Shown here: positions 18,979-27,529 of the stretch, piece after piece
How the letters are laid out: each line of letters opens with the position of its first letter
Numbering within the stretch: the first letter of the stretch is position 1
Origin: an uncultured Bacteroidia bacterium
GTDB taxonomy: Bacteria; Bacteroidota; Bacteroidia; Bacteroidales; ML635J-15
Assembly: GCA_902790405.1 (NCBI GenBank)
Contig: CADARW010000020.1
Location: forward strand, 1-51,986
Direction: 5' to 3'
Length of the DNA: 51,986 bases
Translations under genes and position numbers: made by a program
Notes under the pieces: model-generated
What the model saw: only the letters and a program-made list of their open reading frames with translations
The model's database searches: none
What the model was told of the DNA's origin: nothing

Positions 18979-19173
18979 ATGAGGCTCTCAAAGAAACAGA
19001 AATTCAGGTTAGTTCTATCAGCATTGTCTTTCGTATTACTTCTGCTGGCTATTTTCAGTCATTATGATTATCTCTGGGTTAAATTACTCGCCATTCTTGC
19101 AAATGTCTTATTGATGGCCAGCATGCTAATCTCCTTTTTTGTCGTCAAGAAGCATCCCGAGAAGGATAAATGA
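18979..19173 (+). CDS. Possible small two-TM membrane protein
   Basis: 65 aa with two hydrophobic helices (LVLSALSFVLLLLAIF, LLAILANVLLMASMLISFFVV). No promoter box was found. Confidence 0.3.
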   Translation: MRLSKKQKFRLVLSALSFVLLLLAIFSHYDYLWVKLLAILANVLLMASMLISFFVVKKHPEKDK

Positions 19174-19514
19174 CCTTTTCGAAAGGTCCATCAAATTCGA
19201 ATTTGTCGGGCAGTTTAACATAAAATGATATGGAAGAGCATCGTGTTACGGTGTGACATCCCTTTTTTTCTTAAAATGACACGCAGCATCTCCTCCTCTT
19301 TATCGTATATTGTCATTCGCTGCTTGGTTTTTCTATTCGTATCCCTTTTTTTATATCTGCCGTATGACTCAATCAAAAAATATGTCGAATAACATTATTT
19401 TTCCTTTTTCGGAAAAACTTTTAAAATGCTTATTTTGCAAAAAATTTTTTTTGTGAAACGGGGTGTTTTGCCTTTCACATCTGATGGCAAAATGCTGTGA
19501 CACTTTTTTTTGAA

Positions 19515-21191
19515 ATGACAACAACAGCTATAATTTCAGCAATACTGACACTGCTTTCCGGTATCGGAATCTTCCTAATTGCGTGTCAGATGATGAGTAC
19601 AAATCTCGAGTCGGCAAGTTCTAGCAAACTGAAAAATCTATTTGCAAAAGCATCTAAGAGCAAACTCCTTGGAGTAGGAATAGGAGCGGTTGGAACAGCG
19701 GCAATCCAGAGTTCGGGTGCTACCACGGTGATGGTTATTGGTTTTGTGAATGCAGGAATAATCTCGCTTGCACAAGCGGCGACCATGATTTACGGAGCAA
19801 ACATTGGTACTACTATCACTGCGCAGATTGTTGCACTTGGTATGTTTGGCGAAAACGTGCTATCTACAACCGTAATTTTCTCGGCTTTTGCAGGCATTGG
19901 TGCTTTTGCAATGCTGTTCGCAAAAAGCGATTTCTGGAAGCGCATCGGCGGAATTTTCACTGGCTTCGGAATGCTGTTTGTCGGCTTGAGCCTCATGAGC
20001 TCCTCGATGTCGGATTTCGCCGAAATGGAAGCCGTAAAGACTTTCCTTGCAGGAATCAGCAATCCGATTCTGCTAGTGCTTATCGGTGCAATTTTCACAG
20101 CCATCATCCAAAGTTCGTCGGTGATGACATCCATTGCGCTTGCCATGGTGGTGACAGGACTTGTTACTCTCGACCAAGGTATTTTCCTTACAATTGGTTC
20201 TAATGTTGGTTCTTGCGTTGTGGCAATTGTTGCTGGTGTTACGAGCGGACGAAATGCACAGCGTACTGCATTGATTCACTTGATATTCAACGTCAGCGGT
20301 GCAGTTTTGTTCCTTGTAGCAGCATTTGTCATGGGACTATTTTCCGACGACATGAGTTTCGGTGCTATTTTCAATCGCATGTTCCCCGGTGTTCCGCAGG
20401 TGCAGCTTGCAATGTTCCATACGATATTCAATGTCGCTACCGTGATAATAGTTCTTCCGCTGACCGGTGCACTCGTGAAGTTGGTTTGCAAGATGATTCC
20501 CGACAAGGTAGAAACCGATCCCGACAGTCCACGCTTATTCTTTGTCGACGACAACATGCTGAAGACTCCGCCTGTAGCTGTGCAGCAGACCAAGCGTGAA
20601 ATCGAAAATATGGCAAAGATCGCCATCGGCAACTTCAACCGCTCGCTGGACATTGTGACCAAGTTGGATTTCTCGGAGAAAGACAAGTTCGCAAAGGACG
20701 AGAACCAGCTTAATTTCTTGAACTCGGCAATAATCGATTATGTTGTGAAGCTTTCTAAAATGCGTCAGCTTAGCGAAAAGGACCACAACTACCTCACCAC
20801 TACTTTCCGCAGCGTCCGCGACATTGAGCGTATAGGCGATTATGCCGAAAATATTGTCGAATATGCAGGTATGTTAAAGGATACCGGCGAAAAGTTTTCG
20901 TCGCAGGCAGTAGAGGAGATAGAGAATGTCCGTACTCTCATCAACGAGTTGTACGACAAGATAATGAAGGCATATTCCGATGAGGATTTCGCAGCGTATT
21001 CTGAAGCTGAAAAGGTTGAGGATAAAATTGACGAATATACCAAGCACATGGAAACCAGTCATATCGCACGAATGTCGCTCGGGCTTTGTTCTCCAAATGC
21101 TGGTGCAGAGTATCTGTCGTTGTCGTCAAATGCCGAACGTGTTGCCGACCACCTCATAAATGTTGGAAAATCGATACGAAGGTTAGAGTAG
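19515..21191 (+). CDS. Na+/phosphate cotransporter (NptA-type) with C-terminal PhoU-like domains
   Basis: Duplicated Na/Pi motifs (GTAAIQSSGATTVM and TAIIQSSSVMTS). The C-terminal half is helical with PhoU-like RDIERIGDYAENI and NAERVADHLINV. Confidence 0.9.
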   Translation: MTTTAIISAILTLLSGIGIFLIACQMMSTNLESASSSKLKNLFAKASKSKLLGVGIGAVGTAAIQSSGATTVMVIGFVNAGIISLAQAATMIYGANIGTTITAQIVALGMFGENVLSTTVIFSAFAGIGAFAMLFAKSDFWKRIGGIFTGFGMLFVGLSLMSSSMSDFAEMEAVKTFLAGISNPILLVLIGAIFTAIIQSSSVMTSIALAMVVTGLVTLDQGIFLTIGSNVGSCVVAIVAGVTSGRNAQRTALIHLIFNVSGAVLFLVAAFVMGLFSDDMSFGAIFNRMFPGVPQVQLAMFHTIFNVATVIIVLPLTGALVKLVCKMIPDKVETDPDSPRLFFVDDNMLKTPPVAVQQTKREIENMAKIAIGNFNRSLDIVTKLDFSEKDKFAKDENQLNFLNSAIIDYVVKLSKMRQLSEKDHNYLTTTFRSVRDIERIGDYAENIVEYAGMLKDTGEKFSSQAVEEIENVRTLINELYDKIMKAYSDEDFAAYSEAEKVEDKIDEYTKHMETSHIARMSLGLCSPNAGAEYLSLSSNAERVADHLINVGKSIRRLE

Positions 21192-21208
21192 GAAAACAAT
21201 TTTTTGTG

Positions 21209-21216
21209 TAAATTTG
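21209..21216 (+). promoter_or_regulatory. -7 promoter box TAAATTTG for the 21.2-26.3 kb operon
   Basis: It matches TAnnTTTG and lies 32 nt upstream of the TTG at 21248. Confidence 0.45.
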
Positions 21217-21247
21217 TCCATTAATTTTTTTTTCTAAAGACGAAGAT

Positions 21248-21565
21248 TTGCGGTTTAAGTTGAGGCTTTCAATAGAGGAGACAGTAGAGAATGTTGTTCA
21301 GTATGCCTACAAGGATGGTATTGGCTGGATGGAAGTAGGCACAGCCCTCGAAAAAAATGGTTTGACACTTACAATTACCTTGAAGGATGCTGGCAAACCG
21401 TTTAATCCGCTTGAAAAAAGCGATCCGGACATCAATCTTCCACTCGAAGAGCGGGAAATCGGCGGTTTGGGCATTTATCTGTGCAAGCAACTTATGGACG
21501 AGGTCCTGTATCGCTACGAGGATGGATGTAACATATTGACAATGAAGAAGGAAATCTCTAAATAA
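21248..21565 (+). CDS. RsbW/SpoIIAB-like HATPase (anti-sigma-type Ser kinase), N-terminally short, TTG start
   Basis: N box EETVENVVQYAY, G1-like LKDAGKPFNP, G2 GGLGIYL. There is an in-frame stop at 21209-21211 and no in-frame ATG before the N box. About 35-40 aa that normally precede the N box are missing. Confidence 0.65.
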   Translation: MRFKLRLSIEETVENVVQYAYKDGIGWMEVGTALEKNGLTLTITLKDAGKPFNPLEKSDPDINLPLEEREIGGLGIYLCKQLMDEVLYRYEDGCNILTMKKEISK

Positions 21566-21573
21566 CAGTCGCT

Positions 21574-23478
21574 ATGCTTAATTCAAAATCAAAATCATTT
21601 TCAACAAGGTTAAGCCTTAATGTACTGTTGATTGTTACAATCCTTTTTGTTATTGTGCTGGGCATTGTTGCTGTATCTTCCCACATGCTTATTTCCGATG
21701 AGGCCAAGCGAAGTGCATCCAACATACTGAAAGCCACAATACTCGATGTGGAAAAAACTTTGCAGTCTGTAGAGTCCACCGTGAAAGACGCTTCGTGGCT
21801 GGCTAAGGAAAACGACAAAGATGAGAAATACCTATACCACATTACAAGCAAGGTTGTTGAGGAAAATTCATACATCATAGGCAGTGCCATTGCTTTCGAC
21901 TCATGCTATTTTGAAGGTCGGCATTTCTTTTCTCCGTATTCCTACGAGGATGCTGAGACTGGTGAACTAAAAAGCAAGGAACTAGGCACCGAAACAAACG
22001 ACTACTTTACTCAGGAATGGTACAGCGAACCTAAGAACACTGGCAATCCGCACTGGAGCGAACCATATTTCGATGTTGGCGGTGGAGAGCAGATGATGAC
22101 AACATACAGTTATCCGATAAAAGACTCTACCGGCCGTGTTTATGCCATTATCACTGCCGACATTTCGCTTGATTGGCTTTCGGAAAAGGTTTCCGCCATA
22201 CATCCATACGAGCATTCACAAACAATACTCATTAGCGCGCAAGGCAGATTTCTTACATCTGGTTCGGAATTTAATCTCGCAGGCGAATCGGCAATTGATG
22301 TAGCCGACACTTTGTTTAACGGGAGTTTAATGGAAATATCGAGGAACATGGTTGCTGGCGATAGCGGAACAATGCGCTTTTCTACCAGACGTGGATTAGC
22401 GTTTGCCGTATATGCACCTCTCGATAACGGCTGGTCGATGTCAATAACCTGCCAGTACAGCGAAGTGCTGGAACGCACTTCGCAAATGCACCTTGTACTT
22501 ATCATAGTCGGGCTTTTAGGGTTGCTGATAATGTTCATAATATGCTATCGCATAATACGGAAACTAACGCAACCGATTAAAGATTTTTCTGTCTCTGCTC
22601 TGAATATCGCAAATGGTGATTTCCATACCCAGCTTCCTGAGGTTAAGTCGAATGATGAGATACTAACACTACGCGACTCGTTGGCGTTTATGCAGCAGTC
22701 ATTGGTGACATACCTTGAGCAAATTGAATCGGTAACATCGGCAAAGAAGCGTATGGAAACTCAATTATACATCGGTCAGAAAATACAGGAGGGAATGTTG
22801 CCGAAGAATTTTCCCAACGACAGCCGATGTGCACTTAATGCGAAGGTGGTTCCTGCCAAGGAAGTCGGTGGCGACCTGTACGACTTTACCATCAACGGCA
22901 ATCGCCTTAATTTCTCGGTGGGCGATGTTTCGGACAAGGGTGTGCCTGCAGCTTTTGTGATGGCAATTACGAGGGTGATGTGTCACCTGTTTGCCGATTT
23001 GGGACTGCCGGTTAAGGATGTGGCTACTAGGATAAACAACAGCATTGCCAAGAGCAACGACGCAAATATGTTCGTCACCTTGTTTTTCGGCTGCATCGAC
23101 CTTGAAACCAAGAAGATGGAATTCTGCAATGCAGGACACAACCCGATAATTGTCATTCCTCCCGACGAAAAACCGTATTATCTCAAGGCAAATCCAAATA
23201 TGGCTGTAGGTGTATGGAATGGATTTGAATACAAGTCTGAAAGTTTGGATTTGCGTCCTGGAACCAAGCTTCTGCTTTACACCGACGGTGTAACCGAAGC
23301 AGAAAAAGCCGACAAGGAACAATTTGGTGAAGAACGGCTTCTGCAACTGGCATCAAAGCCCGAATTCAGAAATCTAAATCCCGATGAAATGGTTTTGACA
23401 GTACACAATGCTGTAACCGATTTTGCCAGTGGTAACGAACAGAACGATGACATAACAATTTTTGCAATAACAATATAA
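21574..23478 (+). CDS. Membrane sensor phosphatase: TM-Cache-TM-HAMP-PP2C (SpoIIE/RsbU family)
   Basis: Two TM segments flank a Cache-like domain (FSPYSYED...HWSEPYFD...YSYPIKD). A HAMP segment follows. PP2C motifs are GGDLYDF, GDVSDKG, NAGHNP, LYTDGVTEA and NDDITIFA. Confidence 0.9.
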   Translation: MLNSKSKSFSTRLSLNVLLIVTILFVIVLGIVAVSSHMLISDEAKRSASNILKATILDVEKTLQSVESTVKDASWLAKENDKDEKYLYHITSKVVEENSYIIGSAIAFDSCYFEGRHFFSPYSYEDAETGELKSKELGTETNDYFTQEWYSEPKNTGNPHWSEPYFDVGGGEQMMTTYSYPIKDSTGRVYAIITADISLDWLSEKVSAIHPYEHSQTILISAQGRFLTSGSEFNLAGESAIDVADTLFNGSLMEISRNMVAGDSGTMRFSTRRGLAFAVYAPLDNGWSMSITCQYSEVLERTSQMHLVLIIVGLLGLLIMFIICYRIIRKLTQPIKDFSVSALNIANGDFHTQLPEVKSNDEILTLRDSLAFMQQSLVTYLEQIESVTSAKKRMETQLYIGQKIQEGMLPKNFPNDSRCALNAKVVPAKEVGGDLYDFTINGNRLNFSVGDVSDKGVPAAFVMAITRVMCHLFADLGLPVKDVATRINNSIAKSNDANMFVTLFFGCIDLETKKMEFCNAGHNPIIVIPPDEKPYYLKANPNMAVGVWNGFEYKSESLDLRPGTKLLLYTDGVTEAEKADKEQFGEERLLQLASKPEFRNLNPDEMVLTVHNAVTDFASGNEQNDDITIFAITI

Positions 23479-23484
23479 GTATTT

Positions 23485-23787
23485 ATGGAAGTTAATATTG
23501 AAAATACTGGAAACAAGACATTTGTAGTTTTGAACGGACGACTTGACACGACAACCGCCGACAAGTTCATGCAGGACATTACTCCGCTTATGCAAGGAGA
23601 TAATCCCGACATTGAAATTGACTGCACAGGTTTGGAATACACATCGAGCCAAGGACTCCGTATGTTCCTTATGCTCCAGAAAAGTGTGACGGCACGTAAG
23701 GGTAACCTCGTGATGCGCAATATGAAACCAAATGTAAAGGAAGTGTTCGACATCACAGGTTTCTCGAACATAATTAAGATAGTTTAA
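23485..23787 (+). CDS. STAS-domain anti-sigma-factor antagonist (RsbV/SpoIIAA-like)
   Basis: 100 aa. LNGRLDTTTA...DCTGLEYTSSQGLRMFL contains the conserved phosphorylatable Ser context. It starts 6 nt after the phosphatase gene. Confidence 0.85.
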   Translation: MEVNIENTGNKTFVVLNGRLDTTTADKFMQDITPLMQGDNPDIEIDCTGLEYTSSQGLRMFLMLQKSVTARKGNLVMRNMKPNVKEVFDITGFSNIIKIV

Positions 23788-23808
23788 TTTTTAGCCACAG
23801 GCTTGAAT

Positions 23809-24894
23809 ATGGAATACAATCTTGACTTTCACTGTCAGATGATTCTTGACGAATATCGCGAGAATTTGGCGATATTTGAAAAGATGAAGGAAATCGTGCG
23901 AGCACAACTCGAAAAGTGCGTCGCCGACAACAATATATATGTTACTGCAATAGAGTCGAGAATAAAGACAGAAAACAGTCTCGCCGGTAAGTTGGAACTC
24001 AAGGGGTATAAGTACAAGGCTCTCTCGGACATTACCGACATTTTAGGCACTCGTGTCATTACCTTCTATTCTGAGGAAGTTGACAAGATTTCGGCTCTCA
24101 TCGACAAGGTTTTCGAAGTCGATTGGGAAAACTCGGTAGATAAGCGCAAGGCTCTCGATCTCGACCAGTTCGGATATATGTCGCTGCACTACATCTGTCG
24201 TATACCAAAGTCGCTGTACTACGATGCCGAACATCCCGAAATAAACGATTTCCGCTTCGAAATACAGATGCGCACCGCCCTGCAGCATGTGTGGGCTACA
24301 ATGTACCACGACACAGGCTACAAGTCGGGCATTGAGGTACCAAAGGAGCATCTACGCAATATGAACCGCCTTGCCGGTATGCTAGAACTTGCCGACGAGC
24401 AGTTTAGTCGCATACGCAAGGAAATCACCGACTATCGTCGCAATGTGCAGTCGTTGGTTACCGACGGTAACTTCGACGAAGTGCCTCTCGACAGCGACAC
24501 CTTCCGCAGCTACCTCACTATGAAGCCTTTCAAGAAGCTAATCGACAAGATTGCAACCATCAATCAGGCCGAAATCTACGAGGACAACCTAATGCGCTAC
24601 TTGACAACGCTGATAAAGATGAACTTCCGAACTCTTGGTGATTTGCAACGGCTTATAAAGGACTGCAGTGACGATGCATACAAACTTGCACTTCATCAGC
24701 TTTCGTCGACAGATCTCGACATTCTGGCGCTGTCGGTGGCATTGCAGAACCTTTGCATAGTGTATATAGTAAAGAATGGAGGCGGTGAAATCGGTCTGCG
24801 AATGTTCTACGATTCCGTTTTTGGAAAGTCGGACTACAACATCGAGCACGCACGGCGCACATTCGAACAGGTGTCGAAAATTAATATAAAGTAG
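23809..24894 (+). CDS. RelA/SpoT-domain nucleotide pyrophosphokinase (small alarmone synthetase type) with a ~150 aa helical C-terminal extension
   Basis: Motifs are RIKTENSLAGKL, DILGTRVITFY, ENSVDKRKALDLDQFGYMSLHY and FEIQMRTALQHVWATMYHDTGYK. There is no HD, TGS or ACT domain. Confidence 0.85.
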   Translation: MEYNLDFHCQMILDEYRENLAIFEKMKEIVRAQLEKCVADNNIYVTAIESRIKTENSLAGKLELKGYKYKALSDITDILGTRVITFYSEEVDKISALIDKVFEVDWENSVDKRKALDLDQFGYMSLHYICRIPKSLYYDAEHPEINDFRFEIQMRTALQHVWATMYHDTGYKSGIEVPKEHLRNMNRLAGMLELADEQFSRIRKEITDYRRNVQSLVTDGNFDEVPLDSDTFRSYLTMKPFKKLIDKIATINQAEIYEDNLMRYLTTLIKMNFRTLGDLQRLIKDCSDDAYKLALHQLSSTDLDILALSVALQNLCIVYIVKNGGGEIGLRMFYDSVFGKSDYNIEHARRTFEQVSKINIK

Positions 24895-24905
24895 AAAGTA
24901 AATTT

Positions 24906-26315
24906 ATGGCAAACAAATATATAGACACATCCATCCTCGACAAGGCAATGCATTTTGCAATTGATGCACACGCCAATACCGAACGTCGAGGAAAGGGTTT
25001 CCCATACTCGGTACACTTAATGGAAGCGGTGGAGATAGCCGCAACAATAACTTCTGATCAGGAAATACTTGCCGCAGCAGCATTGCACGATACAATTGAA
25101 GATACAGATGTAACATTGAAGCAGTTGCGCGAGGAATTTGGCAATAGGATTGCAGCTTTGGTAGAAGCCGAAAGCGATAAGTTTGCAAATGGCTTTTCGG
25201 AGCGGGACAGTTGGACTGACCGAAAAAAGGCAGCCCTGGAAAGGCTCGCCAATGCTCCATACGATGCAAAAATTGTGGCTATGGGCGACAAACTCTCGAA
25301 TATGCGCGCCATCGCCCGCGACTACGAGCGTATTGGCGACGAGCTTTGGAAAATCTTCCATGCACCAAATGGCAAATCCGACCACGAATGGCGCTACCGC
25401 GAACTGGCAGTAGCACTTTTCGACCTTGCTGGAACTCCTGCATACCGCGAATTTATTACTCTGCTTGAAAAGACGTTCGGACAGAAGGATTTCGGTGAGC
25501 CAGCAAAAATCAACCTCGCAGACTATGAGCGTAGTGGCGAAGGCTTCAATGCCGAAAGTTACAACCATAAGGGTGGACGCACAATGATAAAGTTGTACGC
25601 CGAATCGGTATCGCCCGAAATGCCGTTGCGCGAACTTCGCACTGCAATGAATGTTTTCCGTATGGGACTGCCTACGCCTATGCCAGGACGCTTTGTCACC
25701 GATGGCAAGAGGTACGGTTGCGAGTTTGGTCGTATTGTCGATAAGAAGTCGTTTGCAAGGGCAATATCCGAGAATCCCGACAGTATGAAAAGATATGCAG
25801 CCGAATTTGCCCGTATGTGCAGGCAGTTGCATTCTACGGTTTGCAATCCTGCTGTTTTCCCGTCGGCAGTCGAAATGTCTTGCAGGGCAGTTGAAAATGC
25901 AGAAATTTTCACCGACGACGAGAAGAAAAAGGTTCTCGATTTTGTGAAAAGCATACCACCAGCAACGACTTGTCTCCACGGCGACTTGCATATCGGCAAT
26001 ATTCTCGATTCTAGTTTCGGCAACCTGTGGATTGACCTTGCCGATTTCAGCTATGGCAATCCATTGTTCGACTTTGGCATGATGTACCTTGTCTGCAGGT
26101 GCAATCCCGACGACTTGACAAAGAAGCTATATCATATCGACAATGCGGCAATGCTCAAGTTCTGGGAGATGTTTGCCTGCGAATATTTTGGTACCGATAC
26201 TCCCGAAAAGCTCGCCAAAGTAGAAAATAAACTTCGCCCGTTTGCAGCTTTGAAGATGCTGTATTTCGGAATTAAGGGCTACGACAATTTCATAAGGGAA
26301 AGCTTGCTGGGATAA
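24906..26315 (+). CDS. Fusion of a SpoT/Mesh1-type HD alarmone hydrolase domain with an APH/choline-kinase-like phosphotransferase domain
   Basis: The N-terminal part has YSVHLMEAV, ALHDTIEDT, VEAESD and GDKLSN, the (p)ppGpp-hydrolase HD signature. The C-terminal part has CLHGDLHIGNIL and WIDLADFSYGNPLFDFG, the APH catalytic loop and DxD. Confidence 0.8.
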   Translation: MANKYIDTSILDKAMHFAIDAHANTERRGKGFPYSVHLMEAVEIAATITSDQEILAAAALHDTIEDTDVTLKQLREEFGNRIAALVEAESDKFANGFSERDSWTDRKKAALERLANAPYDAKIVAMGDKLSNMRAIARDYERIGDELWKIFHAPNGKSDHEWRYRELAVALFDLAGTPAYREFITLLEKTFGQKDFGEPAKINLADYERSGEGFNAESYNHKGGRTMIKLYAESVSPEMPLRELRTAMNVFRMGLPTPMPGRFVTDGKRYGCEFGRIVDKKSFARAISENPDSMKRYAAEFARMCRQLHSTVCNPAVFPSAVEMSCRAVENAEIFTDDEKKKVLDFVKSIPPATTCLHGDLHIGNILDSSFGNLWIDLADFSYGNPLFDFGMMYLVCRCNPDDLTKKLYHIDNAAMLKFWEMFACEYFGTDTPEKLAKVENKLRPFAALKMLYFGIKGYDNFIRESLLG

Positions 26316-26668
26316 CGCTACGCAGTTTCAATGGCTGCGCCGTTTGAATGCCTTCGGCGTTTCTATGTGCTTCGCACGTTTGAATGGCTGACGCCGTTTG
26401 AATGCCTTCGGCGTTTCTATGGCTACGCCGTTTGAATGGCTACGCCGTTTCTGTGGCTGCGCCGTTTCTCGCTTCGCGTTTCAATGGCTTCGCCGTTTGA
26501 ATGGCTACGCCGTTTCTGTGGCTGCGCCGTTTCTCGCTTCGCGTTTCAATGGCTGCGCCGTTTCTCGCTTCGCTGTTTCTATGCCTTCGGCGTTCCTAAG
26601 TTTGTGTCTTGCAGGCTTAAAGCCTTTTAGCCTTCCAGCCCAAGGGGTTCAATGGCTTCGCCGTTTCT
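26316..26668. repeat. Degenerate tandem array with a ~15-19 nt period, ~18 units, consensus GGCNNCGCC-GTTT(C/G)(A/T)AT
   Basis: It starts on the base after the TAA at 26313-26315. Each unit holds a GGC-NNN-GCC or GCC-TTC-GGC mini-hairpin followed by GTTT. An exact 64 nt block occurs at 26426-26489 and again at 26491-26554 (65 nt period). A second higher-order period of 54 nt is seen at 26342 and 26396. A solitary unit lies at 26648-26668. Confidence 0.9.
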
Positions 26669-26693
26669 AGGTTTTATGCTGTTTGCGGATAAT

Positions 26694-26722
26694 AAAAAAG
26701 GAGCTGAAAATAAATCAGCCCC
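26694..26722 (-). terminator. Rho-independent terminator of the 26747-27529 gene
   Basis: The minus strand reads GGGGCTGA-tttatttt-TCAGCTCC followed by TTTTTT. Confidence 0.6.
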
Positions 26723-26746
26723 TTTCCTATAAAAAGATTTTTAACC

Positions 26747-27529
26747 TTATTCGTTTTTCTTTTTCGGCATTTTCTTTCTTGCCTTAGCCGATGCAAACGC
26801 TCCGAGTATCACAACGCAGAATACGATTGCACCGTACATGCATTCTATCGAAAGCATTATCAGCGCCTCGATGCCGAGGAAGAACACCAATGCGATTGCC
26901 ACGCCCCATGCGCTCTTTGTGCGTACACAGTCGAGAACCATCTTTACAAGGCAGAAAAGTATCATCACTATCTGGCTGCCGAACAATACCCACGAGCAAG
27001 CCGATGCCGAAGCCTTTGCGATGTAAACGATAACGCTTGCTGCAAGTCCTGCGAGAGCAACTACTGTTCCCCATTTCCATTCTTTCCACTTCTTGCCTTC
27101 GCTAAGTCCTGCGTGTACCGACATCTGGGCAGTAACCTGCATTACGGCGCAAATCATCCAGTAAACAACCAGCACAAGTCCTACAAGACCAAGAATTGCA
27201 AGTCCCCAGTCGCCAACTACATCGTAGTCGCAGAACCAGCCAATGCATGGTTTCTCGCCATATCTGTCAACGGTTGGCAAATCGGCCATGAAGCAGTAGT
27301 AATATATTGAAACCAAGGTAATTCCGAACAATGTGTACAAAATCGGATAGAACTTGGCTTTGTCCCTGTAGCGGATTTGGAAGTTTACCAGCTCCATGAA
27401 TGCTGCCATGATAAAAATGAATATCAAAAGTCCCAACGGATTGATGCCAAGAGGGTTGGAGTGGTGCAGGTTAAGAAGTTCCGGAATGTTCGTAACCGGA
27501 GATTCGCTTAGTCTTTCTATAAAATTCAT
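26747..27529 (-). CDS. Multi-pass membrane protein, function unknown
   Basis: 260 aa with about 7 hydrophobic helices and a basic C-terminal tail KARKKMPKKKNE. A -7 box (CAAAAATA on the plus strand, 27618-27625) lies upstream. Confidence 0.7.
   Translation of the reverse strand: MNFIERLSESPVTNIPELLNLHHSNPLGINPLGLLIFIFIMAAFMELVNFQIRYRDKAKFYPILYTLFGITLVSIYYYCFMADLPTVDRYGEKPCIGWFCDYDVVGDWGLAILGLVGLVLVVYWMICAVMQVTAQMSVHAGLSEGKKWKEWKWGTVVALAGLAASVIVYIAKASASACSWVLFGSQIVMILFCLVKMVLDCVRTKSAWGVAIALVFFLGIEALIMLSIECMYGAIVFCVVILGAFASAKARKKMPKKKNE

Follow-up and report, generated by a model that had tools for sequence, protein, structure and literature searches.

Introduction

Long RelA/SpoT homologue (RSH) enzymes use non-catalytic domains to regulate the activity of their HD hydrolase domain. 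To our knowledge, the regulation of alarmone hydrolases known so far proceeds through these C-terminal domains of long RSHs, through neutralization of the toxin-antitoxin (TA) type, or simply through expression. Here we describe a gene from an uncultured bacterium of the Bacteroidales in which an alarmone hydrolase domain shares one polypeptide with a kinase domain whose catalytic residues are intact. The gene is located at positions 24906 to 26315 of the window, which is the whole 51,986-nt stretch of contig CADARW010000020.1 (assembly GCA_902790405.1) that was analyzed; all coordinates are those of the window, forward strand.

Three described systems are closest to this locus. RelH is a small alarmone hydrolase (SAH) of the Mesh1-L subgroup and a proven (pp)pGpp pyrophosphohydrolase (PMC5954133). 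The SAH antitoxin ATfaRel of C. marina neutralizes FaRel, a toxic small alarmone synthetase (toxSAS), in a type IV TA system (PMC7229694). In the SiaABCD system of Pseudomonas aeruginosa, the partner protein SiaC directly binds and activates the diguanylate cyclase SiaD (PMC8457831), and the phosphorylation state of the partner is set by the PP2C phosphatase SiaA and the kinase SiaB (PMC8457831; see also PMC7647112).

Two RSH classification papers (PMC3153485; PMC7229694) do not mention a kinase-fused SAH. A literature search, which did not cover all journals, returned nothing on a SAH-kinase (HD_4 plus APH) fusion, on TIGR02172, on STAS domains with APH, or on any association of a partner switch with a small alarmone synthetase (SAS) or SAH. 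Public databases already list the proteins themselves, though by generic names, the fusion orthologues only as 'TIGR02172 family protein' (NCBI) and relatives with a STAS-kinase architecture just as 'phosphotransferase', and no describing paper was found in the same search.

One gene encodes a hydrolase and a kinase domain

The fusion gene can be divided as follows, the limits of the linker being taken from alignment to stand-alone SAHs (query residues 1-192) and stand-alone kinases (query residues ~196-456).

24906..26315, + strand: fusion open reading frame (ORF; SAH-kinase), a single ATG-started frame of 469 aa plus stop
24906..25481, + strand: SAH domain, residues 1-192 (HD_4, Mesh1-L/RelH-like), from Pfam HD_4, PDB matches, Foldseek and invariant residues
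25482..25502, + strand: inter-domain linker of ~7 residues (193-199)
25503..26312, + strand: APH/ELK-fold kinase domain of TIGR02172 type, residues 200-469, from TIGR02172, Pfam APH, Foldseek and invariant residues

An earlier note, made from the letters and ORFs of the window, had read this frame as an HD alarmone hydrolase joined to an APH-like kinase, in departure from the HD-SYNTH-TGS-ACT order of long RSHs. Both domains are indeed detected above their Pfam cut-offs within the 469-aa frame, and every motif named in the note is present (H37, H61-D62, E65-D66, D128-K-L-S-N132, H358-G-D-L-H-I-G-N365 and D377-L-A-D-F381). Pfam and NCBIfam scans of the fusion returned no RelA_SpoT, TGS or ACT match, and the long-RSH model TIGR00691 reached 58.6 bits against a cut-off of 499.2, on residues 14-136 alone. 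Judged by its domain content, the fusion is not a long RSH (Rel/SpoT/RelA). As in long RSHs, its HD hydrolase is carried on the same chain as another catalytic domain that handles nucleotides, and hydrolysis and synthesis are presumably under reciprocal regulation; unlike in long RSHs, that second domain is an APH-fold kinase rather than SYNTH, TGS and ACT are absent, and synthesis is assigned to a separate SAS. The protein is also set apart from stand-alone SAHs (~180-200 aa, single domain) by its 469 aa and its second catalytic domain.

The earlier note had raised a sequencing frameshift as an alternative, and the probability that two genes were joined by an assembly or sequencing error is now negligible. 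Independent metagenome contigs of other samples align collinearly with the ORF and show substitutions only, with no indels across 24002-26315; the first indel among them is at 26337, 3′ of the fusion stop. The full-length frame is free of stops in 13 species of the genus (470-487 aa), and ~470-aa orthologues, at 52-97% identity, number in the hundreds. A homologue search yielded 498 relatives, and every complete ~470-aa protein among the 120 listed, from which domain content and identity were taken, carries PF13328 plus PF01636 at 52-93% identity. Sheep-gut metatranscriptome contigs (~98% identical) cross both the SAS stop/fusion start and the HD/kinase boundary, DNA carry-over being possible in that library. 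An AlphaFold model of the fusion, built on the homologue alignment, was confident (pLDDT 90.9, pTM 0.85), with an SAH-like HD half and an APH-fold C-terminal half. The fusion is thus one real, conserved gene of rumen Bacteroidales, with an HD hydrolase domain of RSH type and a kinase domain of APH fold covalently joined in its product.

Hydrolase domain

Pfam HD_4 matches residues 14-147 with 63.6 bits (cut-off 27.2, E 2.2e-17). The best solved-structure sequence matches of the N-terminus are RelH of C. glutamicum (7qoc, E 5.5e-21) and a Leptospira SAH (7qoe, 1.1e-19), and in Foldseek searches of the model against the PDB the N-terminal half superimposes on 7qoc, 7qod and 7qoe with TM scores of 0.82-0.88 and a root-mean-square deviation of ~2 Å. 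Alignment with RelH and the Leptospira SAH places the R-R/K-x-G-x-PY substrate motif together with the H, HD, ED and D...N residues, which supply the predicted metal and catalytic positions H37, H61-D62 (nt 25086-25091), E65-D66, D128 and N132. Across 22 full-length homologues, down to 53% identity, R27, R28, H37, H61, D62, E65, D66, D128 and N132 are invariant. No substitution of catalytic residues, the other objection foreseen in the earlier note, was seen on alignment in either the HD or the APH domain.

With the RelH/Mesh1-L SAHs (7qoc/7qod; Leptospira 7qoe) the domain shares the HD_4 fold, 30-33% identity, six hydrolase motifs and the Mn-binding His/Asp residues. Hydrolysis of the 3′-pyrophosphate of (pp)pGpp, shown for RelH (PMC5954133), is predicted for the fusion as well, and residues 1-192 most likely constitute a Mn-dependent alarmone 3′-pyrophosphohydrolase of the Mesh1-L/RelH type. 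Those SAHs are stand-alone proteins of ~190 aa, whereas the fusion adds a 270-aa kinase domain and is encoded in a partner-switch operon. One further HD_4 protein is encoded in the genome, a 743-aa frame on contig C32, which we take to be the genome's own long RSH.

The same type of SAH was also found fused to other enzymes, as an HD_4-PP2C-Y_phosphatase3 triple hydrolase (P0152, 782 aa) and as an ADP-ribosylglycohydrolase-HD protein (P0209, 458 aa).

Kinase domain

The C-terminal domain matches Pfam APH on residues 247-397 (36.7 bits, cut-off 23.2) and, just over the cut-off, NCBIfam TIGR02172 (237.9 bits versus 228.2; all 226 model positions, on residues 202-427), which describes an uncharacterized APH-like family named after Fibrobacter succinogenes paralogues. 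Its key residues are the G-loop glycines G211 and G213, K229 (nt 25590-25592), E243, H358-G-D360 (nt 25977-25985), N365 and D377 (nt 26034-26036). In the 22-sequence alignment G211, G213, K229, E243, H358, D360, N365 and D377 are invariant, and they remain so after addition of stand-alone and split-gene kinases. The metal-binding role that the earlier note gave to the DLADF motif is borne out for its first Asp, the invariant D377, and not for D380, which is not conserved.

Foldseek placed the C-terminal half with APH(2''), APH(3'), amicoumacin kinase (AmiN), capreomycin phosphotransferase (Cph), a choline/ethanolamine-kinase family protein and methylthioribose (MTR) kinase, at TM scores of 0.45-0.63 and with a probability of 1.0 for the APH, choline-kinase and MTR-kinase structures. 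Against PDB sequences the kinase-domain profile gave weak matches to MTR kinase (4.5e-5), the ACAD11 kinase domain (8e-4), APH(2'') (1e-3) and YihE (5e-3), and the NCBIfam model NF008738, 'serine/threonine protein kinase', also matched weakly (E 3.9e-4). With the APH/choline-kinase/MTR-kinase superfamily (PF01636) the domain shares the bilobal fold, the Brenner motif HGDxxxxN, the Mg-binding Asp and the β3 Lys/αC Glu pair; it differs in its weak similarity to characterized kinases, the MTR kinase being the best. Since the profile search finds only weak relatives, the domain is a distinct APH-fold branch without a characterized close relative.

It is very improbable that the domain is an unrelated xenobiotic or antibiotic phosphotransferase of the APH resistance type that became fused by chance. 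Such an origin would fit the Pfam APH match and the Foldseek matches to the APH(2''), APH(3'), amicoumacin and capreomycin kinases, but the curated resistance families are not reached, their scores lying far below cut-off (APH(6), 16.8 versus 325 bits; APH_6_hur, 12.3 versus 27), and association of kinase, SAH and STAS recurs in several independent architectures (see below), which is not expected of a chance fusion. A resistance APH was rejected on these scores. It is also improbable that the kinase fold is an ATP/GTP-sensing regulatory domain that controls the HD domain allosterically without phosphotransfer. The repeated fusion to SAHs, the confident single-body model and the precedent of non-catalytic regulatory domains in long RSHs speak for a sensor; against it, D360, N365, D377 and the K229-E243 pair are invariant, also in stand-alone and STAS-fused relatives, which is the pattern of an active kinase rather than of a pseudokinase. 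Residues ~200-469 are therefore best regarded as a predicted ATP-dependent kinase of the TIGR02172 branch that would act as a true phosphotransferase.

The earlier note had named three kinds of target for the kinase, a nucleotide product, the neighbouring SAS or STAS protein, and an unrelated substrate, with no preference among them. As acceptor, a small, nucleotide-like anion from the same pathway is preferred, with a probability a little short of even, because the nearest solved relatives (MTR kinase, ACAD11 kinase domain, APHs, choline kinases) are small-molecule kinases, because the kinase is repeatedly fused to a nucleotide hydrolase, and because the module already holds a dedicated STAS kinase. 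A protein of the module is possible at clearly lower probability, and something else altogether is slightly less probable again. The narrower proposal of a nucleotide of the alarmone pathway, phosphorylated for example on a ribose hydroxyl of the alarmone, its precursor or its breakdown product, is rather unlikely. A stand-alone kinase paralogue (G430) is uninformative on the substrate, SAS, STAS, PP2C and HATPase all being absent within the 18 kb fetched.

An operon with a partner switch and no sigma factor

The fusion is the last gene of an operon that also encodes an RsbW-like kinase, a Cache-HAMP-PP2C protein, a STAS protein and a SAS, in that order, on the same strand and separated by gaps of 6-15 nt; 11 nt lie between the SAS stop and the ATG of the fusion. 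The genes preceding the fusion are:

21248..21565, + strand: RsbW/SpoIIAB-like HATPase_c_2 serine kinase, 105 aa from a TTG start (Pfam HATPase_c_2, E 5.4e-19)
21574..23478, + strand: Cache/PDC-HAMP-PP2C (SpoIIE) sensor phosphatase, 634 aa (Pfam)
23485..23787, + strand: STAS protein of the anti-anti-sigma type, 100 aa, with motif YTSSQGLR (S54; Pfam STAS, E 7.5e-17)
23803..24894, + strand: SAS, 363 aa (Pfam RelA_SpoT), with a RelQ/RelP-like core at ~residues 1-215 and a helical C-terminal domain

The SAS and STAS neighbours assumed in the earlier note are thus real genes by their Pfam matches. The SAS contains the motifs RxKxxxS, DxxGxR, GYxSxH and EIQxRT, is closest in sequence to RelQ/RelP (PDB, E ~1e-9), and folds like SAS1/SAS2 (RelQ/RelP; TM ~0.8) rather than like the solved toxSAS CapRel (TM 0.40, Foldseek). 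Its helical C-terminal domain (~residues 222-363) is conserved and modelled mostly at pLDDT >90; neither Pfam nor the 50 best Foldseek matches gave it a counterpart, and the switch proteins may dock there.

A PP2C phosphatase, a STAS protein with a phosphorylatable Ser and a HATPase_c_2 kinase, that is, a partner-switch set, are therefore co-encoded. No sigma factor was found by Pfam scans of called genes in the operon (19497-26315), in the ten ORFs scanned around it, or in the related clusters that were scanned. The operon is best described as a partner-switching system without a sigma factor, in which the SAS and the SAH-kinase fill the output place.

In the RsbW-like frame an in-frame TAA is present at 21209-21211 and the sole start is the TTG at 21248. 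The orthologue in loci L003/L004 is 136 aa long, and tblastn aligns ~136 aa of the protein in the close relatives L009-L011 and L013, beginning ~100 nt further upstream. The N-terminus may be truncated or mis-started in the window's genus (21149-21565).

Upstream of the operon is a Na/Pi cotransporter-PhoU gene, which is linked to the module in just 5/80 related loci, of which four are closely related to the window and one is a weak match. A promoter/terminator scan of 19000-27000 gave nothing above chance. On the base after the fusion stop begins an array of ~17-nt repeats (GGCxxxGCC plus GTTTC/GAATG-like; 26316-26668), for which the summed contig depth in three DNA runs is 10-100x that of the flanks and many length-variant joints differ between samples; the array appears multi-copy or hypervariable.

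Recurrence and distribution of the module

A scan of GTDB species genomes gave 556 relatives, and locus counts refer to the best 80, which were chosen via HD-domain peptide patterns and ranked by whole-query match. Nearly all are from uncultured herbivore-gut Bacteroidales (metagenome-assembled genomes (MAGs) from rumen and horse; Cryptobacteroides, Rikenellaceae, Prevotella sp., Paludibacteraceae), and two are Fibrobacter MAGs. Components were counted per locus by tblastn with the operon proteins of the window:

SAS: 69/80
HATPase_c_2: 59/80
STAS: 59/80
Cache-PP2C: 57/80
Y_phosphatase3 (CX5R phosphatase): 37/80
NMT1-like gene: 14/80

In distant homologues the gene-call tables show the same gene set in shuffled order. 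The module is patchily distributed in herbivore-gut Bacteroidales and Fibrobacter. In genome samples it is rare: TIGR02172 was detected in 3/401 genomes spread evenly over the phylum and the fusion in 5/301 genomes of the order. The family sample comprised 57 genomes, of which 14 of the 39 species of the genus carry the fusion and none of the 18 genomes from other genera does. The SAS was detected in precisely those 13 of these 57 genomes that hold the full-length fusion, the sole exception to the pairing being a 74%-complete genome with only a contig-edge fragment of the fusion. Gain and loss thus affect the two genes together.

This co-inheritance is one of the features that would be expected if SAS and SAH-kinase were a toxSAS and its type IV antitoxin, or a module for growth arrest or defence, in which the HD domain degrades a toxic SAS product. 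As in FaRel/ATfaRel, the SAS and SAH genes are adjacent, strictly co-inherited and very patchily spread, there is precedent for SAH antitoxins (PMC7229694), and the SAS has a domain-level match, though nothing beyond that, to the PADLOC candidate PDC-S33 (E 2e-17). Unlike in FaRel/ATfaRel, the core of the SAS is nearest to housekeeping RelQ/RelP, with CapRel farther off, and the SAH carries a kinase domain that a TA pair leaves unexplained; the five-gene operon with its periplasmic Cache sensor and partner switch also speaks for regulated signalling over a bicistronic TA system. PADLOC gave no match for the fusion, STAS, HATPase or PP2C proteins, and a known defence system was ruled out for them on that basis. 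A TA or defence role is accordingly given little probability.

In other lineages the HATPase_c_2 kinase of the module is fused to a DAGK_cat/YegS lipid-kinase-like domain (439 aa; L007/L021, 9414-10733) or to the PP2C phosphatase (621-679 aa; L065, 5535-7574; L099, 9702-11567). A Xan_ur_permease-DUF5020 unit stands beside the module in seven loci (L017, L020-L022, L024, L027 and L033; e.g. L007, 13983-17413); a second Xan_ur_permease follows 3′ of DUF5020 in the gene tables of L005-L007, and the unit is also found near a fusion without an adjoining SAS (L005/L006 region). A link to purine or nucleobase uptake is possible.

Split, fused and STAS-containing architectures

An exhaustive search of 1.84 billion representatives followed by Pfam scans identified, besides the PP2C-Y_phosphatase3 and ADP-ribosylglycohydrolase fusions described above, the fused architectures HD-kinase (~470 aa), HD-STAS-kinase (~560-605 aa) and STAS-kinase (~365 aa), as well as kinases of ~280 aa and SAHs of ~190 aa that stand alone. 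In HD-STAS-kinase proteins the insert is placed at the position of the linker of the fusion. In clusters of the Paludibacteraceae type, kinase and SAH are separate adjacent genes, in that order, and in a few clusters (L070, L084) they are separated by other genes of the module. HD-STAS-kinase genes belong to the same module, which then runs STAS, SAS, HD-STAS-kinase and either a PP2C-HATPase fusion or Y_phosphatase3. One such cluster (L098, 5606-10590) is flanked by two Y_phosphatase3 paralogues; neither PP2C nor HATPase occurs in the 8 kb upstream of it, and only 0.9 kb of contig remain downstream.

A maximum-likelihood tree of 126 kinase domains placed all SAH-linked kinases in one supported clade (97/95). 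Within the tree, the well-supported branches require the HD-kinase state to have changed at least four times, and a second HD-kinase group is sister to the clade of split genes. The SAH-kinase association has thus been rebuilt repeatedly, which speaks for a functional bond over an accident and for kinase and SAH as dedicated partners.

The HD-STAS-kinase and STAS-kinase fusions tie the kinase domain physically to STAS, which could serve it either as a binding regulator or as a substrate. Free STAS proteins retain the motif Y[TI]SSxGLR at all loci where STAS is encoded (59/59), and the classical PP2C/RsbW cycle presumably operates on them. In the kinase-fused STAS domains a Ser or Thr occupies the acceptor position in 19/98 cases (13/37 HD-STAS-kinase, 6/61 STAS-kinase), the others having Asn (45), Asp (15), Lys (13) or other residues; among orphan STAS-kinase proteins, which are without a partner-switching system, the acceptor is lost in 55/61. 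Because a substrate would be expected to keep the acceptor that the fused domains have lost, the tethered STAS is probably a binding regulator freed from phospho-control, and the residue pattern fits a STAS that docks on and regulates the kinase domain better than one that is phosphorylated by it at the canonical site. Phosphorylation of the canonical STAS serine by the kinase is unlikely in the fused forms on the same counts. Replacement of the RsbW-like STAS kinase by the TIGR02172 kinase is likewise unsupported, the two co-occurring in most loci.

A protein acceptor nevertheless has to be regarded as a serious rival to a small molecule. The kinase could be a protein kinase of the module that adds a second phosphorylation layer, on a non-canonical site of STAS, the C-terminal domain of the SAS, the RsbW-like protein or its own HD domain, with the CX5R phosphatase Y_phosphatase3 reversing it. 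Such a role would suit a kinase that is embedded in a protein-phosphorylation module, is fused to STAS in some relatives and has the protein kinases YihE and NF008738 among its weak matches; Y_phosphatase3 is moreover found in close to half of the loci, on both sides of the HD-STAS-kinase cluster of L098, and within the HD_4-PP2C-Y_phosphatase3 fusion. On the other side, the nearest solved relatives by fold or profile are nearly all small-molecule kinases, most fused STAS domains have no Ser/Thr at the canonical site, the distribution of the RsbW-like STAS kinase is not complementary to that of the TIGR02172 kinase, and Y_phosphatase3 also occurs in clusters with no kinase within 9 kb (L060, L063, L066, L076 and L085). 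This last observation leaves Y_phosphatase3 unsupported as an obligatory antagonist of the kinase, and the second-layer proposal as a whole is considered unlikely, less so than the sensor and TA readings above.

Proposed mechanism

The arrangement that we put forward, and to which we give an even chance, is that the fusion is a two-enzyme output of a STAS partner switch, acts against the SAS, and is bound by STAS at its kinase domain. The proposal is made by analogy with SiaABCD. An outside signal read by the Cache sensor would set the phosphorylation state of STAS through the PP2C phosphatase acting against the RsbW-like kinase. Dephosphorylated STAS, instead of freeing a sigma factor, would dock on the enzymes of the module, in the case of the fusion through its kinase domain, and docking would tip alarmone turnover towards either the synthetase activity of the SAS or the hydrolase activity of the HD domain. 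The kinase domain would be a real phosphotransferase within this scheme. The fusion, its intact catalytic residues, the shared inheritance with the SAS, the recurrent linkage to STAS, PP2C and HATPase and the alternative architectures are observed, whereas the enzymatic activities, the docking and the sign of regulation are inferred. SiaABCD likewise uses a PP2C and a kinase to control the phosphorylation of a small partner, which then acts on a second-messenger enzyme and not on a sigma factor, as is proposed here. The systems differ in that an alarmone synthetase and a hydrolase-kinase, a canonical STAS partner and a GHKL HATPase_c_2 kinase are employed here, and in that physical interaction is suggested by gene fusions alone.

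Several observations weigh against the docking proposal. Fusions without STAS, PP2C or HATPase within 9 kb were found in eight loci (L012, L015, L025, L026, L035, L039, L053 and L057) and fusions without a nearby SAS in four (L005, L024, L032 and L034); the switch is therefore not obligatory in cis. Two STAS-kinase proteins that were examined are solitary genes in housekeeping contexts, and such orphans indicate that the kinase does not strictly depend on alarmone enzymes nearby. The frequent presence of Y_phosphatase3 could mean protein phosphorylation, and YihE, a weak relative of the domain, is itself an APH-fold protein kinase. The neighbour frequencies in the 80 loci are, furthermore, conditional on the presence of the SAH.

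Significance

TIGR02172, for which no characterized member was found, here acquires its first functional handles, with SAH and STAS as partners, and the natural split, fused and STAS-inserted variants provide a ready experimental series. Should the acceptor prove to be a nucleotide of the alarmone pathway, the SAS, the HD hydrolase and the kinase, together with the often-linked CX5R phosphatase, would write and erase an undescribed phosphorylated nucleotide messenger, controlled by a partner switch with a Cache sensor. More generally, a SAH joined covalently to a kinase with intact catalytic residues, and encoded beside a SAS and a STAS/PP2C/RsbW switch, suggests that extracellular signals reach alarmone turnover by a hitherto undescribed route in fibre-degrading bacteria of the herbivore gut, among both Bacteroidales and Fibrobacter.

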